Assembly: GCA_965261395.1 (NCBI GenBank)
Contig: OZ253462.1
Coordinates: 3,744,001-3,808,000 of the forward strand
DNA length: 64,000 nt
Origin: Candidatus Latescibacterota bacterium
Lineage (GTDB): Bacteria; Latescibacterota; UBA2968; UBA8231
Direction: 5' to 3'
The number at the start of each line of letters is the position of its first letter. Position 1 is the stretch's first letter. The notes below the pieces were generated by a model, which did not search any database, was not told the origin of the DNA, and saw nothing but the letters and a program-made list of their open reading frames with translations. A program made the position numbers and the translations under genes. Shown in pieces: positions 15,331 through 23,346 of the stretch.

Positions 15331-16137
15331 ATGAGCTCAAAGATCGCCATACCTAAGGGACGCCGCAGGCTGACCGACGTTATTCGGGCATCCGGCGACA
15401 TCATTCATATCGCCGATGCTGAAGATGCCCTTGGCGTTAGCCGTTCCGACGCGACCAAGCTACTCTCCCGTTGGAGAGGGCAGGGCTGGCTGCGGCGCGT
15501 CGGCCCAGGTGCCTACGCACCAGTTGGCCTTGACTCCCTTGCCAGCGAGCAGGTTCTCGATGATCCCTGGGTGCTGGTGCCTGCGCTTTTTGAGCCGGCC
15601 TATATTGGCGGTCGGACTGCCGCCGAACATTGGGACCTGACGGAGCAGATCTTCCGCGACATTGTTGTGATGACTGCGCGGGCGGTGCGTGCGAAAAGCC
15701 AGCAATGCCATGGCGCACACTTCACCCTAAAGCATGTCCGGCAAGGTATGATCTTCGGGACGAAGACCGTCTGGCGTGGAAGAACCCAGATCGCCGTATC
15801 GGACGTTCACCGCACCATCATCGACATGCTCGACAATCCAGATCTTGGAGCTGGCATCCAGCATGTTGCCGACTGCCTTGCGATCTATTTCGACCGCAAG
15901 GACAGGGATGATGACAAGCTGATTGCCTATGCAGACCGGATCGGTAATGGTGCTGTATTCAAGCGTCTAGGCTTTCTGGCAGAACGCGGACCCGGCACTA
16001 CCACCCTTGTTGAGGCGTGCCGTGCGCGTCTGACCCAAGGCAACGCCAAGCTCGACCCGGGGCTTTCATGCCGCCGTCTCGTATCCCGATGGCGCCTCCT
16101 TATGCCTGAGAGCTGGGCCAAGGCAGCGTCCGCATGA
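15331..16137 (+). CDS. AbiEi-family type IV antitoxin/transcriptional regulator
   Basis: N-terminal wHTH, YIGGRTAAEHWDLTEQ, SDVHRTIIDMLD, NGAVFKRLGFL. Confidence 0.82.
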   Translation: MSSKIAIPKGRRRLTDVIRASGDIIHIADAEDALGVSRSDATKLLSRWRGQGWLRRVGPGAYAPVGLDSLASEQVLDDPWVLVPALFEPAYIGGRTAAEHWDLTEQIFRDIVVMTARAVRAKSQQCHGAHFTLKHVRQGMIFGTKTVWRGRTQIAVSDVHRTIIDMLDNPDLGAGIQHVADCLAIYFDRKDRDDDKLIAYADRIGNGAVFKRLGFLAERGPGTTTLVEACRARLTQGNAKLDPGLSCRRLVSRWRLLMPESWAKAASA

Positions 16138-16271
16138 TCGACCGCCGCTACTGAATTGACCGCATCTAGGGCGCGCAGACAACCGGGCAAAGTTTCATCC
16201 CGCGCTATACAGTGGAGCTGAGCCCGGAGGGCCTAGCCGTCATTCTGCCGACTACAACCCGTAATCTATAA
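16134..16271 (+). pseudogene. Collapsed AbiEii-type toxin remnant
   Basis: ATGA-coupled frame MIDRRY*IDRI*GAQTTGQSFIPRYTVELSP...: N-terminus apparently joined to a distal segment, with two nonsense codons. Confidence 0.6.
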
Positions 16272-16320
16272 TCTGTAATAGTTTGGGGTGTAGGAGAAAA
16301 CATCGTCTTTAGGAAGAAGG
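16262..16320 (+). repeat. 67-bp direct repeat, copy 2 (split by IS4; remainder at 18404-18411)
   Basis: Direct alignment with 12382-12448. Confidence 0.85.
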
Positions 16321-18394
16321 CTAAGTACACGACAGTAAAATCTGTACGGCCTCTCGACTTTCTTTAGATCGGTGTTCCGGATTGGCTATGAGTTGCTGTA
16401 ACCGATCTAAGCCCAGACGAAATAGGCTGATGGCTCGTCGGCCATGCTTTTTCTTGACAATGGGCTTGCGCCTATGCCCTTGCAGTCCAAGGAGCAGACA
16501 CCATAGGAGCCCTACCGCGAGTAGACCGATTAAAAGGTGCAGTCTTGGGGGCTGGGTCAATCGGGTTTCTTCCAAGTGGAAGCCTTTGGATTTGAGAAAC
16601 CCAAACGCGGTTTCTATAGACCAGCGATGCCCATAGGCGATCACGATGTTGTCGAGATCGGATCGATTGGTCACCAGTAACCGCGGCTCGTCTTTGTGGG
16701 GGCGATGGGCGACGAGATTCAAGCGCAGCGATTGGTAGAGCGTGACATTGTAAAACGTGCAGGTCGTCCCTCGTTTCCAATAGCGGGTCATCGACGCTAG
16801 GTAGCGCAGTTGCCCATCGTCGAGGGTGACCCAGCCGTTGCAGCGAATACGGATAACAAAAGAAACGTCGCGTTGCCGCAGCAGAAAGCGAAACCAGTCT
16901 TTGCCAATGAATTCTCGGTCGGCTAATAGACAACAGGTCGAGCCTTTTAAGAGTCTCTAACAAACCCTTTTTATGTCGTTTAGGCTGATCTATATTCATT
17001 TGTTCGGTATTGATGCTACTCCCTTGGTATGGAGGTTTGTTCATGGCCCAGCCCGTACTCGACGATGCGTTATGGGAACTCATTGAACCGGTTTTACCCC
17101 CCGATGTAGCCAAGCCCAAAGGCGGTCGGCCCCCGCTGGATAATCGTCGGGTGCTGACCGGCCTGGTCTTTGTGCTCAAGACGGGCATCCCTTGGGAGTA
17201 TTTGCCGCAAGAGTTGGGGTGCGGCTCGGGGATGACCTGCTGGCGTCGGCGGCGGGCTTGGCAGCAAGCCGGGGTCTGGAAGCGCGTCCACCATATTCTG
17301 TTGAACCAACTACGGGCGGCCGACCGGATCGACGGGTCTCGGGCGGTGATCGATAGTGCCTCGGTGCGGGCGGTTGGGGGGGGGCGCACCCCGGTCCCAA
17401 TCCGACCGATCGGGGCAAACCGGGCAGCAAACATCATGTAATCACCGATGCACAGGGGGTCCCGTTGGCCGCCAGCGTGACGGGGGCGCATCGGCATGAT
17501 GTGACGCAGTTGTTGCCGTTGGTGGATCGCATCCCTGCGGTGGCCGGTCGAGTCGGCCGACCGCGTCGTCGCCCCGATCAGGTGCAAGGCGACCGGGCCT
17601 ATGATTCGCAAGCGCATCGGCGCGCCTTGCAAAAGCGGGGCATCGGCGCGGTGTTGGCGCGGCGGGGACAAGCCCACGGCAGCGGCTTGGGCGTCTATCG
17701 GTGGGTGGTGGAACGGACGTTGGCGTGGTTGCATCAGTTTCGGCGGTTACGAGTGCGCTGGGAGCGGCGAGCCGAAATCCATGAGGCCTTCCTCGACATC
17801 GGATGTATACTCATCTGTTGGAACCACCTCAAAGAGTTTTGTTAGGAACTCTAAATAGGCAAGTGCCTGTCACATCACTTGTTTGCGTTCGCGCGTATGG
17901 GAGTTGCCGGGTCGTTGCAGCGACAAGGATATCAACGGGATTGATACGCCTTGAAACACCAGCCCTAAGCAGAGCAGATTCAGATCGGTCTGGCCCAACT
18001 GCCAGTGCGTCCGATCCAAAACTAACAGCAGCGGTTGCCCGGCAACGACCAGTTTGTCGACGATTAGTCGGGTAAAAACACTCGGGCAGAGGTCGCTGCT
18101 GAAAAACCGCTGCAATCGACGATACTGGCTGTCGATTTTCGTCAAACCCGGTAACGCACAGGCCAGCTTGCGTAGGTTGACCGAGCGGGTTTGGATCAAG
18201 GTAGGAAGCAGTTTGCATAGCAGGTCGATACGGTGACGAGACATGCCCAGCTTGGCTTGCTCCAAGGCGCGCTTGAATGTATGTATTAACACGGTGCAGC
18301 TCCGGAGATGAGAGTTTTATTTGCTTGCTTGGCAGCGTCAAATAAAACGCAACTCCGGACTGCACTACAACTTACACTACTGTCGTGTACTCAG
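16321..18394 (-). mobile_element. IS4-family element, inactivated
   Basis: Terminal inverted repeats CT(A/G)AGTACACGACAGTA; 9-bp target duplication GGAAGAAGG (16312-16320, 18395-18403). Transposase motifs LDRTHW, ADREFIG, RWSIETAF. In-frame TGA at 17870 and a nested IS5. Confidence 0.93.
16951..17851 (+). mobile_element. IS5-family element nested in IS4 (two ORFs, 17043-17441 and about 17465-17845)
   Basis: Inverted repeats GAGTCTCTAACAAA/GAGTTCCTAACAAA, target duplication TAA. Motifs LKTGIPW, GDRAYDS, RWVVERTLAWL. G9 run at 17376-17384 at the frame junction. Confidence 0.93.
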
Positions 18395-18790
18395 GGAAGA
18401 AGGTTTCAAAAGGAGCATAGGATGTCAGAGGGATACCGATCGCATCTCCGGTATGGCTGAGGATCTACAATATCTTGGGCAGCCAGTACGCACGCTGATG
18501 GACGAGATTCAACTTACCGGTAGGTCCAGGTACTTTGAGACGCGCGATGAGTGAGGCACTGCAGTATCGTCGGGGTCTATCTGGCACGCCCAGTTTATCC
18601 CGGTGGGGTCCAGACACGGCGGTGGCTATTGCTCATGTAGCATCGACCTCATATATTCCGAGATTGAGACGAGTTCACGGAGATAAGACCTCAGCGTAGC
18701 TCTAGGCTCGACCTTGGTATATCTCGAAAATTAACTGCGCCCGTGGGCGATAGACATGCCATTGCGAAGGCACTAACGGAAGGAGACGAA

Positions 18791-19063
18791 ATGAGCGATA
18801 AAGTCGATCCAATCGAACAAGAGGAGAAGGTGATCACAATAATAGTAAATGGCCGAGCTAGACAAATCACAGTAGATGAACTGTCGTTCGACGAATTGGT
18901 GGATTTGGCGTTCGATGATCCGGCGCGCGGCTCGCAGATTGTGTTTACGATCACATTTCGGAAAGCAGGCGGTCGGATCGAAGATGGCGAACTCGACGAA
19001 GGACAAAGGTTGAAGTTACGGGACGGGACCGTGGTTAATGTTACACGAACTGATCAGTCGTAA
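18791..19063 (+). CDS. Multiubiquitin-domain ubiquitin-like protein
   Basis: TIIVNGR...LSFDELVDLAF...FTITF...GTVVNVTRTDQS beta-grasp pattern; AGGAG ribosome-binding site. Confidence 0.8.
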   Translation: MSDKVDPIEQEEKVITIIVNGRARQITVDELSFDELVDLAFDDPARGSQIVFTITFRKAGGRIEDGELDEGQRLKLRDGTVVNVTRTDQS

Positions 19064-20243
19064 TCCCGATATACAGAGACTCGTCGGCGACGGCTACGAA
19101 GTAGAAATACGGGCGGGACATCTCGTTCTGCGCCGTATTCCTTATGTGTCAAGCCGGTGCGAGGTACGATATGGGGAGTTAGTCACCCCCATTACAATTA
19201 ATGGATATGAAGTGGGACCTCCACAAGATCACACAGTGTATTTTCGTGGCGAATACCCATGCGATGAAATTGGGAATCATATTGAAGCTATTAGGAATAG
19301 TAGCAATCGCATAGAATTAGCGAATGGCTTGTGGGTAGATCACTATTTTTCCGCAAAGCCTTACGGGAGAGACTACAGGGATTTCCACGACAAGATGACC
19401 CACTATGCTCAGATTTTGGGTCGATATGCTCGGAAGATAGATCCGGGAGCAACAGCACGGTCTGGTCGGCTCACGTTGACAGAAGATCCTAATGACCCCT
19501 TTGTGTACATGGAAACAGCGTCAAGTCGATCTGGAATAGCGAGAATGAATGAGATGCTTGCAAAGGACAAAATCGGGATCGTTGGACTAGGAGGTACCGG
19601 ATCATATATTATGGACTATGTAAGCAAGACACGAGTAGCGGAAATTCATCTGTTCGATGGCGACCAGTTTCAGCAACACAATGCATTTCGTGCGCCTGGA
19701 GCGGCAACCACGGAAGAAATCTCCGATAAGCGGAATAAGGCGGAATTTTACGCAGTAAAATACAGCGTAATGAGAAAGGGAATTGTCGCGCATCCAATAT
19801 ATATACAGCAAAACGATATAGATAAGCTAGTATGTTTGGATTTTGTTTTTGTGTCAATAGATGACAATTCAACAAAGCAGTGGTTGTTGCCCTTACTGGA
19901 GAAGAGGGAGATTCCTTTCATTGATGTAGGAATGGGAATTGAGAAGACTGATGAGAAGCTCTTGGGTATCATACGCACAAGCCTAAGTACACCGACAAAC
20001 GGGCTTTATGCGCCTCAAAAGAAAAAAGCATACGCGGATCTAGGTCAGCACGATGTTGGAGAGTACGAGCGGAATGTACAAATTGTCGAGCTAAACGCGT
20101 TAAATGCCGCCCTTGCTGTTATAAAATGGAAGAAATGGAGAGGCTTTTATCTTGATCTAGAAGGAGAGATACAAAGCACCTATACAGTGGATGGCAATCA
20201 TTTGGTGAACAGTGGTGAAAGGGCAATTGCTCCGATATCATGA
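19038..20243 (+). CDS. E2-like (DUF6791-like) plus ThiF/E1 fusion
   Basis: N-terminal DHTVYFRGEYPC; C-terminal IVGLGGTGS, LFDGD, HNAFR, FIDVGMG. Confidence 0.82.
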   Translation: MLHELISRNPDIQRLVGDGYEVEIRAGHLVLRRIPYVSSRCEVRYGELVTPITINGYEVGPPQDHTVYFRGEYPCDEIGNHIEAIRNSSNRIELANGLWVDHYFSAKPYGRDYRDFHDKMTHYAQILGRYARKIDPGATARSGRLTLTEDPNDPFVYMETASSRSGIARMNEMLAKDKIGIVGLGGTGSYIMDYVSKTRVAEIHLFDGDQFQQHNAFRAPGAATTEEISDKRNKAEFYAVKYSVMRKGIVAHPIYIQQNDIDKLVCLDFVFVSIDDNSTKQWLLPLLEKREIPFIDVGMGIEKTDEKLLGIIRTSLSTPTNGLYAPQKKKAYADLGQHDVGEYERNVQIVELNALNAALAVIKWKKWRGFYLDLEGEIQSTYTVDGNHLVNSGERAIAPIS

Positions 20244-20671
20244 ACATGCATCATGAATTTGTTGAGTACATACCGGAGGAGATAAGCAACGGGATCTTGT
20301 ATGTCTCGATTCCGTATGGGACCGTGGTTCACAAGTGTGCATGTGGGTGCGGAGAAGAAGTCGTGACACCTTTAGGTCCTGCAGAGTGGAAGTTTACATA
20401 CAATGGTAAAACAATATCTCTGTATCCGTCGGTAGGCAACTGGAGTTTCGCTTGCAGATCACACTACTGGATAAGCGAGAGTGAAGTCCAGTGGGCCAGA
20501 GCATTCTCAATGGAAGAGGTATTGGAAGCCCGGAAGAAGGCGAAACAGCTCCGAAAGCGGATGTACGGCCCGATCTCGGAAGCGAAGAGAGATACTACAC
20601 AGGAGACGACGAGGGAAAATCGTTTCGTTGCGATGGCGGTAAAGTTGTGGAAAAGAATGTGGAAGAGATAG
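20240..20671 (+). CDS. DUF6527-like Cys/His-rich metal-binding protein
   Basis: HKCACGCG, LYPSVGNW, CRSHYWI; ATGA-coupled to the E2-E1 gene. Confidence 0.75.
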   Translation: MNMHHEFVEYIPEEISNGILYVSIPYGTVVHKCACGCGEEVVTPLGPAEWKFTYNGKTISLYPSVGNWSFACRSHYWISESEVQWARAFSMEEVLEARKKAKQLRKRMYGPISEAKRDTTQETTRENRFVAMAVKLWKRMWKR

Positions 20672-20703: not shown

Positions 20704-21231
20704 ATGGACGAAATAGATCAGACAAAGGCGGATTCGGTGTCGGACTCTACAGACGAGTTGTGTGACGCGATCACCATCGCACGAGAGCGGTTACGCAAAT
20801 ACGAAGATTATGTAGGTGGAAAGGAGACACGGACCCGTGTGCTCATTATTGACGAGATTCTTAAGGGGCTAGGCTGGGACGTTACGGATCCAAGACTAGT
20901 TAAGATGGAACTTGGAGACAACCGCAGCATAATTGATTACGTTCTAATTGGGGAAGGAGGAGAACACCTCGGGGTGGTGGAGGCCAAGCGGTCAAAGGAC
21001 GTGTTAAGAGACATCGATCGCAGACAAGCCTCGGGATATGCAGTCGAATTAGGTGTGAGCTTTGCAATCTTAACGAATGGATGGCGTTGGGAAGCATGGA
21101 AGGTGGACCAGGCAATAGCTCGAAAGGACGCTATGATTGTGCAGACAAACATCACTACTGGCGACACTATAAATATCGCCGAGAATATGAAGGGTATTCA
21201 CCATTGCTGCCTATTAGCAGGGCAAAGTTAG
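20704..21231 (+). CDS. Stand-alone HsdR_N-like PD-(D/E)xK nuclease
   Basis: ETRTR...ILKGLGWD, IDYVL, VVEAKR, QASGYA, ILTNG.RW. Confidence 0.75.
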   Translation: MDEIDQTKADSVSDSTDELCDAITIARERLRKYEDYVGGKETRTRVLIIDEILKGLGWDVTDPRLVKMELGDNRSIIDYVLIGEGGEHLGVVEAKRSKDVLRDIDRRQASGYAVELGVSFAILTNGWRWEAWKVDQAIARKDAMIVQTNITTGDTINIAENMKGIHHCCLLAGQS

Positions 21232-21270: not shown

Positions 21271-21708
21271 TTGAGACATCCCCAGAAACGTAGCAAGACG
21301 AAAAGGAAGAGTGCTGTGGCATCGCTAGGTAAGATCAGCGAAGGAACACTCGAACAGATGGCTCAAGACGCCAGATACAGGGCTAGTCCGTACCATAAAT
21401 CCAACCCTGCGGACTGGGGTTTATCCAGACCAAGACCGCGTCCCGACAAGACCGTCTGCGAGGGATCTGGAATCACTTGTTGTTGGGACGCTACCGAGTT
21501 ACTCAAATCCGGCATTCGTCGTGGAATGGTTAGTGAACAAAAACGTGGAGACTGGCCCCAGAATGTATGGGCAGTTGACACCGAAGGCATCGTATATGAG
21601 GCTCAACTTTCTAATCGCGAACTTGGTGAATATCATGGATATCCTATGAAGCATGGCGATAGATTTGCCGAGTTCGTACAGAGCGAATGGGAGAAACGCA
21701 GCCAATGA
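21271..21708 (+). CDS. Hypothetical protein, putative toxin/RNase
   Basis: SPYHK, RPDKTVC, WPQNVWAV, YEAQL and YHGYP motifs; start uncertain. Confidence 0.5.
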   Translation: MRHPQKRSKTKRKSAVASLGKISEGTLEQMAQDARYRASPYHKSNPADWGLSRPRPRPDKTVCEGSGITCCWDATELLKSGIRRGMVSEQKRGDWPQNVWAVDTEGIVYEAQLSNRELGEYHGYPMKHGDRFAEFVQSEWEKRSQ

Positions 21709-23030
21709 CTTTACGGATTAAATCGCGATGGCTATGTAAGGCCGATCAAGATTTCGAGTCCACACTGCAGTCGGCTGAGGACGAAGCGACTTTGGGCGAA
21801 CTCGGCATCCACGTTGGTCAGAAATGCCTTACCCAAGCCTTTGACAGCGAAACTAATACACCACGAGATGGTGCGAACCTTTCGGCATATAGATTGGCCG
21901 AATGGATAGCGTGGCATTGGTGGCGCTTGCGCTGGGAGCCTGCACGACAGCGCCGCCGAGACGTGGATTGGAGTAGAGCTCATGATCTAGCCTGTATTGG
22001 GGGCGGATGGCTCTGGCCGAACATCACCATCAAATCAGATGGCGTTCGTATTGTTTTCGACGTAAGGCCGTCCGAAGTAGTGGAGACGGAACAGCTTCGT
22101 TATACTATGGGTGGAATAGCCACCATTCCAGCCCAGACATTCGAGGAAGGTATTGATGATTTTGTTGGGTGTGTCCTGACTCGCCTTAGAGAATGCACTA
22201 TGAATACGGACCTACACTCGATGTGGAGTGAGTTGAGTTCTGAACGGAAGGATCCGGAAATTTCTCTCTATAGAAGGTTTGAAGCCTATTTAGGCTTTGA
22301 CCCAGATGAAGCCCAACCGGAGTTGATTGAACGACTGATCACAGAGGGCAAGAGCATTGGGATAGAAGCCATATCGGAAGTTGTAGCTGACGACCACCAA
22401 AGCGCGTTAGAATTACATGAAGTGGCACAAGATTTTGGGTTTGACACGCGCCTTGGCGATGGTGTGCAAAGCGTCTCGATATCACAGCACAGTGACCGAA
22501 GTCAAGTCCCCGCTTGGCAGGTGGGAGTAGGAGTTGCAAATCGACTGCGCGAGCAGGAACATTTAGGCAATGACGCGATCCCAAATACTAGACTGGCCGA
22601 ATTATGCGGCATCAGTGAACAAATTCTAACTAGGCAAGACTCAACGGGGGATATCGCTTTTGCCTTTACGCTCGACGACGAGAACAAAGAAAAAGGTCGC
22701 ATTGTACTGCGGTCCACTTGGGAACAGGGGCGTCGATTTGCGGTTGCCCGCCTTCTCGCAGATCGTCTTTTGGACGACCACAACGAATTACTTCATCCGG
22801 CGACCCGAACATACACGTACCGTCAAAAAATGCAGCGTGCCTTTGCCGGCGAGTTCCTTTGCCCAATTCATTCTCTGCGGACTTTTTTGAACGATGATTT
22901 TTCGGACGAAAAACAGCAAGACGCCGCCGAGTATTTCAATGTATCGCCACATACCGTTACCGCACGCCTTGTTGATAACGGAGATCTCGATAGAGAAGAA
23001 TTACAAGACCCGGAAGCACAAGTTGCATAA
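21705..23030 (+). CDS. Protein with C-terminal ImmA/IrrE-like domain lacking HExxH
   Basis: RRFAVARLLAD at the RFTxAHExGH position, QRAFAGEFLCP, terminal HTH AAEYFNVS; ATGA-coupled. Confidence 0.6.
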   Translation: MTLRIKSRWLCKADQDFESTLQSAEDEATLGELGIHVGQKCLTQAFDSETNTPRDGANLSAYRLAEWIAWHWWRLRWEPARQRRRDVDWSRAHDLACIGGGWLWPNITIKSDGVRIVFDVRPSEVVETEQLRYTMGGIATIPAQTFEEGIDDFVGCVLTRLRECTMNTDLHSMWSELSSERKDPEISLYRRFEAYLGFDPDEAQPELIERLITEGKSIGIEAISEVVADDHQSALELHEVAQDFGFDTRLGDGVQSVSISQHSDRSQVPAWQVGVGVANRLREQEHLGNDAIPNTRLAELCGISEQILTRQDSTGDIAFAFTLDDENKEKGRIVLRSTWEQGRRFAVARLLADRLLDDHNELLHPATRTYTYRQKMQRAFAGEFLCPIHSLRTFLNDDFSDEKQQDAAEYFNVSPHTVTARLVDNGDLDREELQDPEAQVA

Positions 23031-23133
23031 GGCTGTAACGTAATGGCCGGGTCCTGTTCCGACCCAAGGATTGAGAGCAGGCGGAGACCCTAGTCCCAAA
23101 CATGAGGCAAAGTTACATTGGAGTCTAAGCAAT

Positions 23134-23346
23134 ATGGACAATGGAAATTATCGAAGCAAGATTGCGGTTGATCCGCAAATTCATTTTGGTAAGCCTTGTG
23201 TTGCAGGAACCCGGATTCCTGTGGTTGACGTTCTCGAATTGGTACGCGAGGGAATCTCGTTTAAGACAATTCTCTCTGATTATTTTTCAGACTTTCAAGA
23301 AGACGACATTCGCGCTTGCATCCATTATGCGATTGGCGCGGCTTAA
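23134..23346 (+). CDS. DUF433 antitoxin (C-terminus possibly clipped)
   Basis: IAVDPQIHFGKPCVAGTRIPV...DDIRACIHYA. Confidence 0.85.
   Translation: MDNGNYRSKIAVDPQIHFGKPCVAGTRIPVVDVLELVREGISFKTILSDYFSDFQEDDIRACIHYAIGAA

Follow-up and report, generated by a model that had tools for sequence, protein, structure and literature searches.

A Latescibacterota locus with the gene content and conserved residues of the Type II Bub operon

In this study, we analysed a 64,000-nucleotide stretch of a Candidatus Latescibacterota genome (contig OZ253462.1, positions 3,744,001 to 3,808,000; hereafter the window) and found a three-gene locus that is very probably an intact copy of the standard Type II Bub operon (formerly 6E.2/DUF6527), for which we infer the published mechanism. 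The initial annotation described this operon type as noted computationally, which is outdated, since the accessible passages of the preprint by Ye, Gong, Chambers and Corbett (10.1101/2024.11.21.623953) already dissect it biochemically and structurally. The window copy has every Type II Bub hallmark published there. The traits that make the operon look unusual, namely a ubiquitin-like protein (Ubl) ending in serine, a cysteine-poor E1 and the lack of a JAB peptidase, are traits of the Type II Bub family, and therefore no new chemistry has to be invoked. As a discovery the operon thus matters little, since this kind of operon, a Tyr/Ser oxyester chemistry that works without cysteines, and the DUF6527 protein as a peptidase have all been published. 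The features of the locus and its surroundings, in window positions, are as follows.

15331 to 16137, plus strand: orphan AbiEi-like wHTH gene (Pfam AbiEi_4, 3.7e-9), without an AbiEii partner
16150 to 18560, no strand assigned: nested IS block of about 2.4 kb with NCBIfam transposase matches
18562 to 18790, plus strand: bubA leader and probable promoter region, intact, downstream of the IS insertion
18791 to 19063, plus strand: bubA, a 90-residue single beta-grasp ubiquitin-like protein with a Ser90 end (TDQS-stop)
19038 to 19532, plus strand: bubBD, E2-like domain (about residues 1–165), carrying His65, Ser105 and Lys107
19533 to 20243, plus strand: bubBD, ThiF-type E1 adenylation domain (about residues 166–401), carrying the nucleotide loop G183xGGxG188, Arg218 and Tyr343 of the crossover loop
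20240 to 20671, plus strand: bubE, a zinc-binding Ser-His peptidase (DUF6527) whose C-terminal tail is basic/hydrophobic
20704 to 21231, plus strand: fourth gene, sub-lineage-specific, encoding a 175-residue standalone HSDR_N-like (PD-(D/E)xK-type) protein, Pfam HSDR_N_2

According to the ORF list, bubA, bubBD (19038–20243, 401 residues) and bubE (143 residues) all lie on the plus strand, with overlaps of 26 nt between the first two and 4 nt between the last two, which bears out the three overlapping genes and the TDQS end described initially. Since Pfam families match all three, we regard the ORFs as real genes rather than chance reading frames; none is disrupted, and each matches a full-length family model. 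Gene complement and same-strand order BubA–BubBD–BubE without a JAB peptidase fit the Type II definition in the preprint, and both are shared, together with the Pfam families, with the Type II Bub operon of E. coli ZDHYS365 as described there. A Pfam search of the neighbouring ORFs returned no JAB domain, in line with the earlier reading of a non-canonical, ubiquitination-like system devoid of this peptidase. A hidden JAB peptidase was considered and rejected: none lies among the neighbouring ORFs, and of the three Prok-JAB matches in the whole genome none falls within the window, the closest being some 325 kb away from the operon. PADLOC offered no model covering BubA or BubE.

The bubA ORF could start at 18743 (GTG) or at 18791 (ATG) and stops at 19063, its product ending in NVTRTDQS directly before the stop codon. 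The ATG is the likely start, because an AAGGAG motif lies 5 nt upstream and a 95%-identical relative (locus L001) starts at the same ATG. BubA belongs to Pfam PF14452 (Multi_ubiq, 4e-11) and aligns end to end with residues 137–222 of the 222-residue E. coli ZDHYS365 BubA (PDB 9cd2), a crystallised protein that also served in the published assays. In a phmmer search against the PDB the match to 9cd2_A reached 2.7e-6 with an alignment extending to the last residue, and a family profile of BubA matched 9cd2 at 1e-23. Both proteins end in T-D-x-S, with TDQS in the window and TDKS in E. coli. They differ in that BubA here consists of one beta-grasp domain (90 residues), while its E. coli counterpart has three; both architectures appear in the published catalogue (10.1101/2024.11.21.623953, in the accessible passages).

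That the Ubl is used with a terminal serine, as first proposed from the window alone, is upheld by E. coli BubA 9cd2 and by 84 of 84 related loci, which share the end pattern NVT.T..S-stop and in which the serine is encoded by all four TCN codons. The C-terminus is fixed as T-[DN]-[KRQ]-S, and the stop codon always follows immediately. This invariant end of a Ubl that undergoes no processing step differs from Type I, where the Ubl ends in glycine, and may be a small but useful point for those working on Bub. We consider it quite unlikely, though worth stating, that Type II BubA makes active use of its terminal serine, with the hydroxyl taking part in the cysteine-free acyl relay or the residue serving as a recognition mark, rather than carrying it as a passive substitute for glycine. 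The Ser90 hydroxyl might assist activation or transfer, or form a transient intramolecular ester; alternatively, the serine might mark the unprocessed Ubl for recognition by BubBD and BubE and so let Type II dispense with a JAB peptidase. In the accessible passages of the preprint (10.1101/2024.11.21.623953) we found no discussion of this residue, and a literature search on C-terminal serine in bacterial ubiquitin-like adenylation returned nothing relevant.

BubBD combines a DUF6791 domain (PF20590, residues 10–160, 5.6e-47) with a ThiF domain (PF00899, residues 172–299, 2.7e-9) and scores 457 bits against the NCBIfam model NF004805, whose cut-off is 352. The NCBIfam label for the protein is 'hypothetical protein'. 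The full-length AF2 model (pLDDT 89.3) has its top Foldseek matches in Citrobacter BubCD (3.7e-14), and the E1 domain also matches BubCD at 8e-4 when searched against PDB sequences. A low-confidence loop at residues 330–342 directly precedes Tyr343, which in the model would fit a mobile crossover loop. For the E2-like domain (AF2 model, pLDDT 82.8), Foldseek alone gave no match at E<=0.001, the best having an E of 0.096 and Citrobacter BubB an E of 0.19. It was only VIA re-alignment that singled out BubB (9eae_C, Z 8.6, rmsd 3.6 Å, 119 aligned residues), the next rows, at Z <= 5.9, being E2/UEV folds.

These matches also bear on whether the genes could instead be a sulfur-carrier module of the ThiS/ThiF or MoaD/MoeB type, or a decaying remnant, without any protein conjugation. 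We find this hardly conceivable. The ThiF domain does weakly match ThiF/MoeB models (NCBIfam, 1.4e-6 and weaker) and an IS block lies upstream; however, the three ORFs are intact and covered by full-length family models, with the NF004805 score above its cut-off, and the nearest structures are BubCD and BubB, not ThiF. Moreover, the Ubl lacks the GG end typical of sulfur carriers, the locus encodes a domain of E2 fold as well as a peptidase of its own, and Pfam detects no thiamine or molybdopterin genes among the neighbouring ORFs.

For catalytic residues, we followed conservation in 150 BubBD sequences, comprising the window protein and 149 representatives of 50% identity clusters, with one 273-residue fragment left out. 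His65, Arg218 and Tyr343 are each present in 150 of 150, Lys107 in 132, and position 105 is serine in 147 and cysteine in the remaining three. Since only Ser or Cys is tolerated there, the position displays the pattern of a nucleophile. From invariance, motif context and near-identical numbering, Ser105, Arg218 and Tyr343 probably correspond to S106, R219 and Y342 of E. coli BubBD, where the accessible passages report that mutation of S106, the Lys+His pair, R219 or Y342 abolished conjugation in vitro (10.1101/2024.11.21.623953). The E2 serine with Lys and His, the adenylation arginine, the crossover-loop tyrosine and the C4 plus Ser-His signature of BubE are thus found alike in both operons, as far as the preprint describes the E. 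coli one.

BubBD itself contains three cysteines, C41, C75 (in GEYPC) and C266 (in LVCLDF), and no CxxC pair. C41 is cysteine in 12 of 150 homologues and the C266 position is mostly Gly, Asp or Glu, so that the earlier impression of an E1 without an obvious catalytic cysteine stands: C266, the only cysteine of the ThiF half, is not conserved. The alignment for conserved Cys, Ser and Tyr suggested in the initial annotation was thereby carried out, and it yields Ser105 and Tyr343 as conserved residues and no conserved cysteine anywhere in BubBD. The same annotation had proposed that the E1 adenylates the terminal serine of the Ubl and hands it over, as a thioester, directly to Cys75, the DUF6527 protein serving as an E3-like adaptor through Cys/His. 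Cysteine is indeed the commonest residue at position 75 (102 of 150, and above 90% in a closer set of 38), it directly follows the invariant Pro74, and the E1 half offers no conserved cysteine of its own. However, the other 48 homologues carry His (23), Tyr (7), Ser (6), Arg (5), Phe (4) or other residues there, while Ser105 is kept or exchanged for cysteine throughout and Tyr343 is invariant; in the E. coli protein, Y342F and S106A each abolished the conjugate, according to the preprint passages. On conservation we therefore rejected Cys75 as the E2 nucleophile; the pattern fits the published S106/Y342 oxyester relay.

The adaptor half of this proposal depends on BubE, which matches PF20137 (DUF6527) at 1.4e-25. 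Among 73 sequences, C33, C37, C72, S64 and H75 are found in all, as are S74 and H31, and C35 in 72. By comparison of its spacing with that of the published C99/H102 and S92, the S64/H75 pair would be the BubE dyad, the residue roles (a C4 zinc site and a Ser-His dyad) being those given by Ye et al. in the accessible passages (10.1101/2024.11.21.623953). There, the S92A/H102A exchange led to loss of peptidase activity and restored conjugates in cells. An adaptor role gains some support from the same source, in which the Ser/His pair beside the BubA C-terminus is described as compatible with Ubl transfer or proteolysis (10.1101/2024.11.21.623953). Against it, the BubE cysteines form the CxCxC...C arrangement described as a zinc site, and S92A/H102A killed peptidase activity. 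Taken with the BubBD data, we regard the direct Cys75 transfer with a Cys/His adaptor as very improbable. Of the two roles first suggested for the DUF6527 protein, the deconjugase agrees with the published BubE result, while the Cys/His chemistry has to be dropped, with the cysteines as zinc ligands and the Ser-His pair as the catalytic residues.

We propose a model, by homology to the E. coli ZDHYS365 system, in which the ThiF-type domain of a BubBD dimer would bind BubA and adenylate the Ser90 carboxylate by means of Arg218 and the GxGGxG loop. The acyl group would pass to Tyr343 of the flexible crossover loop as an oxyester, then to Ser105 of the E2-like domain, helped by His65 and Lys107, and would finally be transferred from Ser105 to an amine of a target protein. 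BubE, a predicted zinc-stabilised Ser64–His75 peptidase, would strip BubA from conjugates and thereby restrain the pathway. A JAB peptidase would be unnecessary in this scheme, as translation itself yields BubA with an exposed, reactive C-terminus. The chemistry at the locus, its targets and its biological role are thus projected from relatives: it is for the proteins of E. coli and Citrobacter that published experiments report Ubl conjugation driven by ATP via oxyester intermediates, and removal of the conjugates by BubE, the Type II data in vitro comprising a BubA–BubA product and AlphaFold models (10.1101/2024.11.21.623953, accessible passages).

Among related systems, the best structural matches of the E1 and E2 folds belong to Type I Bub of Citrobacter sp. 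RHBSTW-00271 (BubAB, BubCD, BubE; PDB 9ea4, 9ea5, 9ea8, 9eae, 9eav), which, as described in the preprint passages, shares the cysteine-free Tyr/Ser oxyester logic and BubE. In Type I, Ubl and E2 form one polypeptide, from which a JAB domain attached to the E1 releases the Ubl with a terminal glycine, whereas in the window the E2 is fused to the E1, JAB is missing and the Ubl is made with its terminal serine. The residues assisting the E2 serine differ likewise, being His and Asp in Type I and Lys and His in Type II. An E2–E1 fusion on one polypeptide is also found in Cap2 of Type II CBASS; Cap2 is among the structural matches, and the Rossmann region of BubBD gives weak matches to the PADLOC 'E1-E2' models (best 7.9e-8, at most 29 bits). 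Cap2, however, is described as using cysteines and conjugating a CD-NTase instead of a Ubl, paired with the JAB peptidase Cap3, and among the neighbouring ORFs CD-NTase, CBASS effector and JAB are all absent, which places the locus outside the definition of Type II CBASS. With Bil (bacterial ISG15-like) systems the operon has in common that bacterial Ubl conjugation is encoded on defence islands. Bil is reported to comprise separate E1, E2 and JAB proteins with a cysteine-based cascade and to act against phage by tagging a phage tail protein, while the operon here has a fused E2/E1, no conserved cysteine and no JAB, a gene content that does not agree with Bil. The antiphage role, deemed likely in the initial annotation, is unproven for Bub, since the authors report no protection so far in the accessible text (10.1101/2024.11.21.623953; EMBO J 2026).

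Compared with the published system, no adjoining CapW, CapH+CapP or CapK+CapS regulator was seen, the upstream side being taken up by the orphan AbiEi-like gene and the IS block. The latter, in which an IS5-family element interrupts an IS4-family transposase gene, separates the AbiEi-like gene from the bubA leader and ends 230 nt upstream of bubA; its borders are approximate, as they derive from alignment with the IS-free relative L001. The leader aligns with the AbiEi–bubA intergenic DNA of L001, where the AbiEi-like gene occupies the same position, 235 nt before bubA. Scanning the leader for the sigma-70 consensus revealed no promoter-like site, and a sigma-70 promoter and terminator scan around the operon gave nothing informative. 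Among 85 related loci the AbiEi-like gene adjoins Bub only in the near-identical L001. It is therefore indistinguishable from an island neighbour, and we rejected it as a Bub regulator. The genes at 21271–21708 and 21687–23030 and a DUF433 gene were likewise discarded as system parts, occurring in 0 of 85 loci.

In a further difference from E. coli ZDHYS365, a PD-(D/E)xK-like fourth gene begins 33 nt after bubE. Its Pfam match to HSDR_N_2 (2.4e-5, 24.8 bits) lies just below the cut-off of 25, and a D...EAK motif is kept in four homologues. The four standalone copies found (window, L001/L091, L003 and L092) all reside downstream of a Type II Bub operon, L001/L091 being a near-twin of the window copy, L003 a gammaproteobacterial MAG (44% identity) and L092 coming from another family of the same class (46%). 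It is conceivable, though in our estimate unlikely, that the unit in this sub-lineage comprises four genes, with the PD-(D/E)xK protein as an effector or target switched on or off by the Bub machinery, which, if true, would give Bub an output. Such a unit is favoured by the exclusive position of the standalone homologues behind Type II Bub in at least three backgrounds, by the conserved motif and by the short gaps to bubE of 33, 33 and 28 nt in three copies. The gap of 371 nt in L092 and the sub-threshold Pfam score speak against it, as does the distribution: among 85 related loci only L001 and L003 carry the gene, and L002, whose BubBD is 63% identical, has a different gene at this position. 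In the wider Type II Bub family the gene is absent after bubE. No co-directional ORF of at least 70 residues follows bubE in 22 loci whose downstream flank measures 1 kb or more, the ORFs present elsewhere are heterogeneous, and among 24 downstream proteins searched against Pfam only singletons came up, apart from HSDR_N in three. The ORF-less loci and the singleton families rule out a fourth gene conserved across Type II Bub. A PD-(D/E)xK-type gene travelling with the operon across distant hosts could nevertheless be a lead to the output of Bub.

The three core genes themselves are widely retained. By tblastn, BubBD was detected in 85 of 85 loci, BubA in 82 and BubE in 77, six of the eight BubE misses being loci that end at most 111 nt past bubBD; the remaining two (L042 and L061) gave no BubE match despite ample downstream flank. 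One 512-residue apparent BubBD–BubE fusion (P0071) looks frameshifted past 'APSIG' and probably reflects an artefact or gene decay. The BubBD family is large, with 7985 of 8000 scored candidates at E<=1e-5 and 1872 representatives at E<=1e-3.

Three co-directional, overlapping ORFs on the plus strand, taken from the ORF listing of the window, make up the operon:

18743 (GTG) or 18791 (ATG) to 19063, plus strand: bubA, small protein with the C-terminus ...NVTRTDQS
19038-20243, plus strand: bubBD, 401 aa
20240-20671, plus strand: bubE, 143 aa

Translation of bubA likely begins with the ATG at 18791, since AAGGAG lies 5 nt upstream and the same start codon is found in a 95%-identical relative. 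In Pfam, the bubA product matched PF14452 Multi_ubiq (4e-11), BubBD matched PF20590 DUF6791 at residues 10-160 (5.6e-47) and PF00899 ThiF at residues 172-299 (2.7e-9), and BubE matched PF20137 DUF6527 (1.4e-25). BubBD contains three cysteines, C41, C75 (GEYPC) and C266 (LVCLDF). No ORF neighbouring the operon carries a JAB domain in Pfam, and the three Prok-JAB matches in the genome are all located elsewhere, the nearest ~325 kb away. Since ORFs, Pfam domains, cysteine count and JAB absence all agree, the initial annotation described the three genes, the TDQS end, the cysteines and the missing JAB peptidase correctly in every detail. Such operons were reported by Iyer et al. in 2006 as '6E/DUF6527' operons (PMC1779556) and renamed Bub in the preprint of Ye, Gong, Chambers & Corbett (bioRxiv 10.1101/2024.11.21.623953), which has since appeared in final form (Nat Struct Mol Biol 2026 33:71-83), as has a companion paper on ubiquitin-like proteins (Ubls; Structure 2025). 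According to the preprint, Type II Bub consists of BubA (Ubl), BubBD (E2-E1 fusion) and BubE (DUF6527), 'typically' without a JAB peptidase. The gene set in the window is identical to this definition, which makes the locus a typical and intact member of an already known operon type, Type II Bub. The 3' end of bubA lies within bubBD (19038-19063), and this 26-nt overlap encodes both the last eight codons of BubA and the first of BubBD; its conservation in 70 of 84 related loci, by a simple first-start rule, suggests translational coupling.

Along its whole length, the window Ubl can be aligned to the final beta-grasp domain (residues 137-222 of 222) of the crystallised E. coli ZDHYS365 BubA (PDB 9cd2_A), which terminates in ...TQTDKS, and a profile of 60 family members gave the same end-to-end alignment to 9cd2 (1e-23). 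The comparison set consisted of 85 related loci: 5 came from genomes, and 80 were the top-ranking of 572 confirmed metagenome matches, their BubBD sharing 41-49% identity with the window protein. Upstream DNA is missing from L077, and the bubA end was scored in the other 84. In all 84, which were picked by BubBD similarity, are akin to one another and do not represent independent samples, the Ubl frame ending at the bubBD start carries serine directly before the stop codon, in the motif NVT.T[DN][KRQ]S. Automatic frame choice yielded 82 of these ends, while the wrong-frame picks in L026 and L045 were settled by the tblastn frame as ...NVTATDKS. The terminal codon is TCG in 58 loci, TCA in 13, TCT in 11 and TCC in 2; all four TCN codons are in use, and selection therefore acts on the amino acid. 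The serine end of BubA is a family trait. We found no mention of it in the preprint text or in a wider literature search; it may be treated in the published version or its supplements.

The initial annotation had proposed an unusual chemistry, with adenylation of the terminal Ser followed by direct transfer to the E2 cysteine in GEYPC. The general sense of this proposal was right and is already explained in print: as stated in the Bub preprint, the catalytic cysteine is absent from both E1 and E2, and an ATP-dependent BubA-BubA product formed in vitro is abolished by R219A, Y342F or S106A. The specific cysteine-based route, however, is unsupported. A whole-library HMMER search returned 1872 proteins at E<=1e-3 (452 at E<=1e-30), from which 150 representatives at 50% clustering were collected; one 273-aa fragment was left out and 149 were aligned with the window protein. 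Position 75 is Cys in only 102/150 sequences (His in 23, Tyr in 7, Ser in 6, Arg in 5, Phe in 4), in contrast to Ser105 (FSAKP), which is Ser in 147/150 and Cys in the other 3, a pattern that would be expected of a nucleophile and that argues against Cys75 as the E2 acceptor. Cys occurs at position 41 in 12/150 sequences, and Gly, Asp or Glu predominate at position 266. His65, Arg218 (NAFRAPG) and Tyr343 (GEYERN) are each conserved in 150/150 and Lys107 in 132/150. We infer that S105, R218 and Y343 correspond to the published S106, R219 and Y342 because of invariance, motif context and numbering, rather than a direct alignment to E. coli BubBD. The three homologues with Cys in place of Ser105 (P0129, P0170 and P0267) keep Tyr343 and might represent naturally occurring variants that use a thioester at the E2 step.

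The full-length AlphaFold2 model of BubBD is confident (pLDDT 89.3, pTM 0.81), with a single long low-confidence stretch at 330-342, just before Tyr343, in keeping with the mobility expected of a crossover loop. In Foldseek the model came closest to the Type I Citrobacter BubCD structures (3.7e-14), with MccB, PaaA, ThiF, UBA5 and Cap2 ranking lower. For the isolated E2 domain (pLDDT 82.8) Foldseek returned no significant match; VIA re-alignment placed Citrobacter BubB (9eae_C) first, with Z 8.6 and rmsd 3.6 A over 119 aligned residues, followed at Z 5.9 at most by E2 folds, UEV folds and the Cap2 E2 domain.

Published BubE is described in the preprint as a peptidase that binds zinc, has a C4 site and a Ser-His dyad, and removes BubA conjugates. 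The window BubE shares both its CxCxC...S...C..H layout and its basic/hydrophobic C-terminal extension. Together with 72 complete homologues drawn from related loci (77 tblastn matches less five with incomplete ORFs), the window protein gave an alignment in which C33, C37, C72, Ser64 and His75 are each conserved in 73/73 and C35 in 72/73. One 512-aa protein, P0071, resembles a BubBD-BubE fusion; since the conserved BubE sequence ends after 'APSIG', it is probably the product of a frameshift or misassembly rather than a true fusion.

Gene content, folds and residues of the operon are those reported here, and every chemical step is drawn by analogy from published homologues. BubA would be made ready for use, its reactive end already exposed; the ThiF domain of BubBD would adenylate the carboxylate of Ser90, the acyl group would pass to Tyr343, then to the E2-domain Ser105 of the partner protomer and finally to an amine on the target, and BubE (Ser64/His75) would reverse the modification. 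With regard to biological role, the authors of the preprint saw no phage protection of E. coli from any Bub operon, and in 2026 the same group described such protection in EMBO J (PMC13373217) as still undemonstrated. In the count given there, 219 of 544 Bub operons neighbour CapW or CapH+CapP and 59 neighbour CapK+CapS; none of these regulators was seen at the window operon.

The operon is located within a low-GC stretch (0.44-0.52 compared to 0.62-0.67 in the flanks). Around it in the window are:

15331-16137, plus strand: orphan AbiEi-like antitoxin/regulator gene (AbiEi_4 wHTH, 3.7e-9)
16150-18560 (approximate): nested IS block of ~2.4 kb, an IS4-family transposase gene split by an IS5-family element
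16321-16791, minus strand: IS4-family transposase gene, C-terminal part
17010-17441 and 17465-17845: IS5-family transposase, two ORFs
17870-18292, minus strand: IS4-family transposase gene, N-terminal part
20704-21231, plus strand: fourth gene, 175-aa HSDR_N-like (PD-(D/E)xK-type) protein, 33 nt after bubE
21271-21708, plus strand: 145-aa gene, no Pfam, PADLOC or NCBIfam match
21687-23030, plus strand: 447-aa gene, weak C-terminal ImmA/IrrE (M78) and HTH matches, weak PADLOC RmrA match
23071-23346, plus strand: DUF433 gene (1.1e-18)

The fourth-gene protein, encoded after bubE in this Bub sub-lineage, retains a conserved D...EAK motif. Among the 85 related loci the gene follows bubE only in L001 (5667-6188) and L003 (5677-6201). 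In 22 loci whose flank beyond bubE reaches at least 1 kb, no co-directional ORF is present there; the ORFs that do follow bubE in the wider family are heterogeneous. A search of 168 genomes of the phylum gave weaker matches in 54, mostly 30-39% identical N-terminal domains of ~320-390-aa open frames, and these longer paralogues do not lie beside Bub. Of the 30 loci returned, only the window, L091 (from the L001 genome) and L092 (minus strand, 46% identity, gap of 371 nt) also contain BubBD and BubE. Every standalone copy found, four in all, adjoins and travels with a Type II Bub operon, but the wider Bub family lacks the gene; the hosts of these copies range as far as a gammaproteobacterial MAG (L003).

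L001, a Candidatus Latescibacterota MAG with 95% identical BubBD, contains the same island in the same place, ordered as AbiEi-like gene, 235 nt, bubA-bubBD-bubE and fourth gene. The IS block is missing there; in the window it was inserted directly after the AbiEi-like stop codon and directly before the bubA leader, leaving the last 229 nt upstream of bubA intact. The AbiEi-like gene is not followed by an AbiEii toxin gene, its slot being held by the Bub operon in both genomes. The DUF433 gene has no obvious partner gene downstream. The genes at 21271-21708 and 21687-23030 overlap, and neither has a confident family; since both are absent from L001 and all 85 related loci, they appear to have entered the island as a separate insertion.
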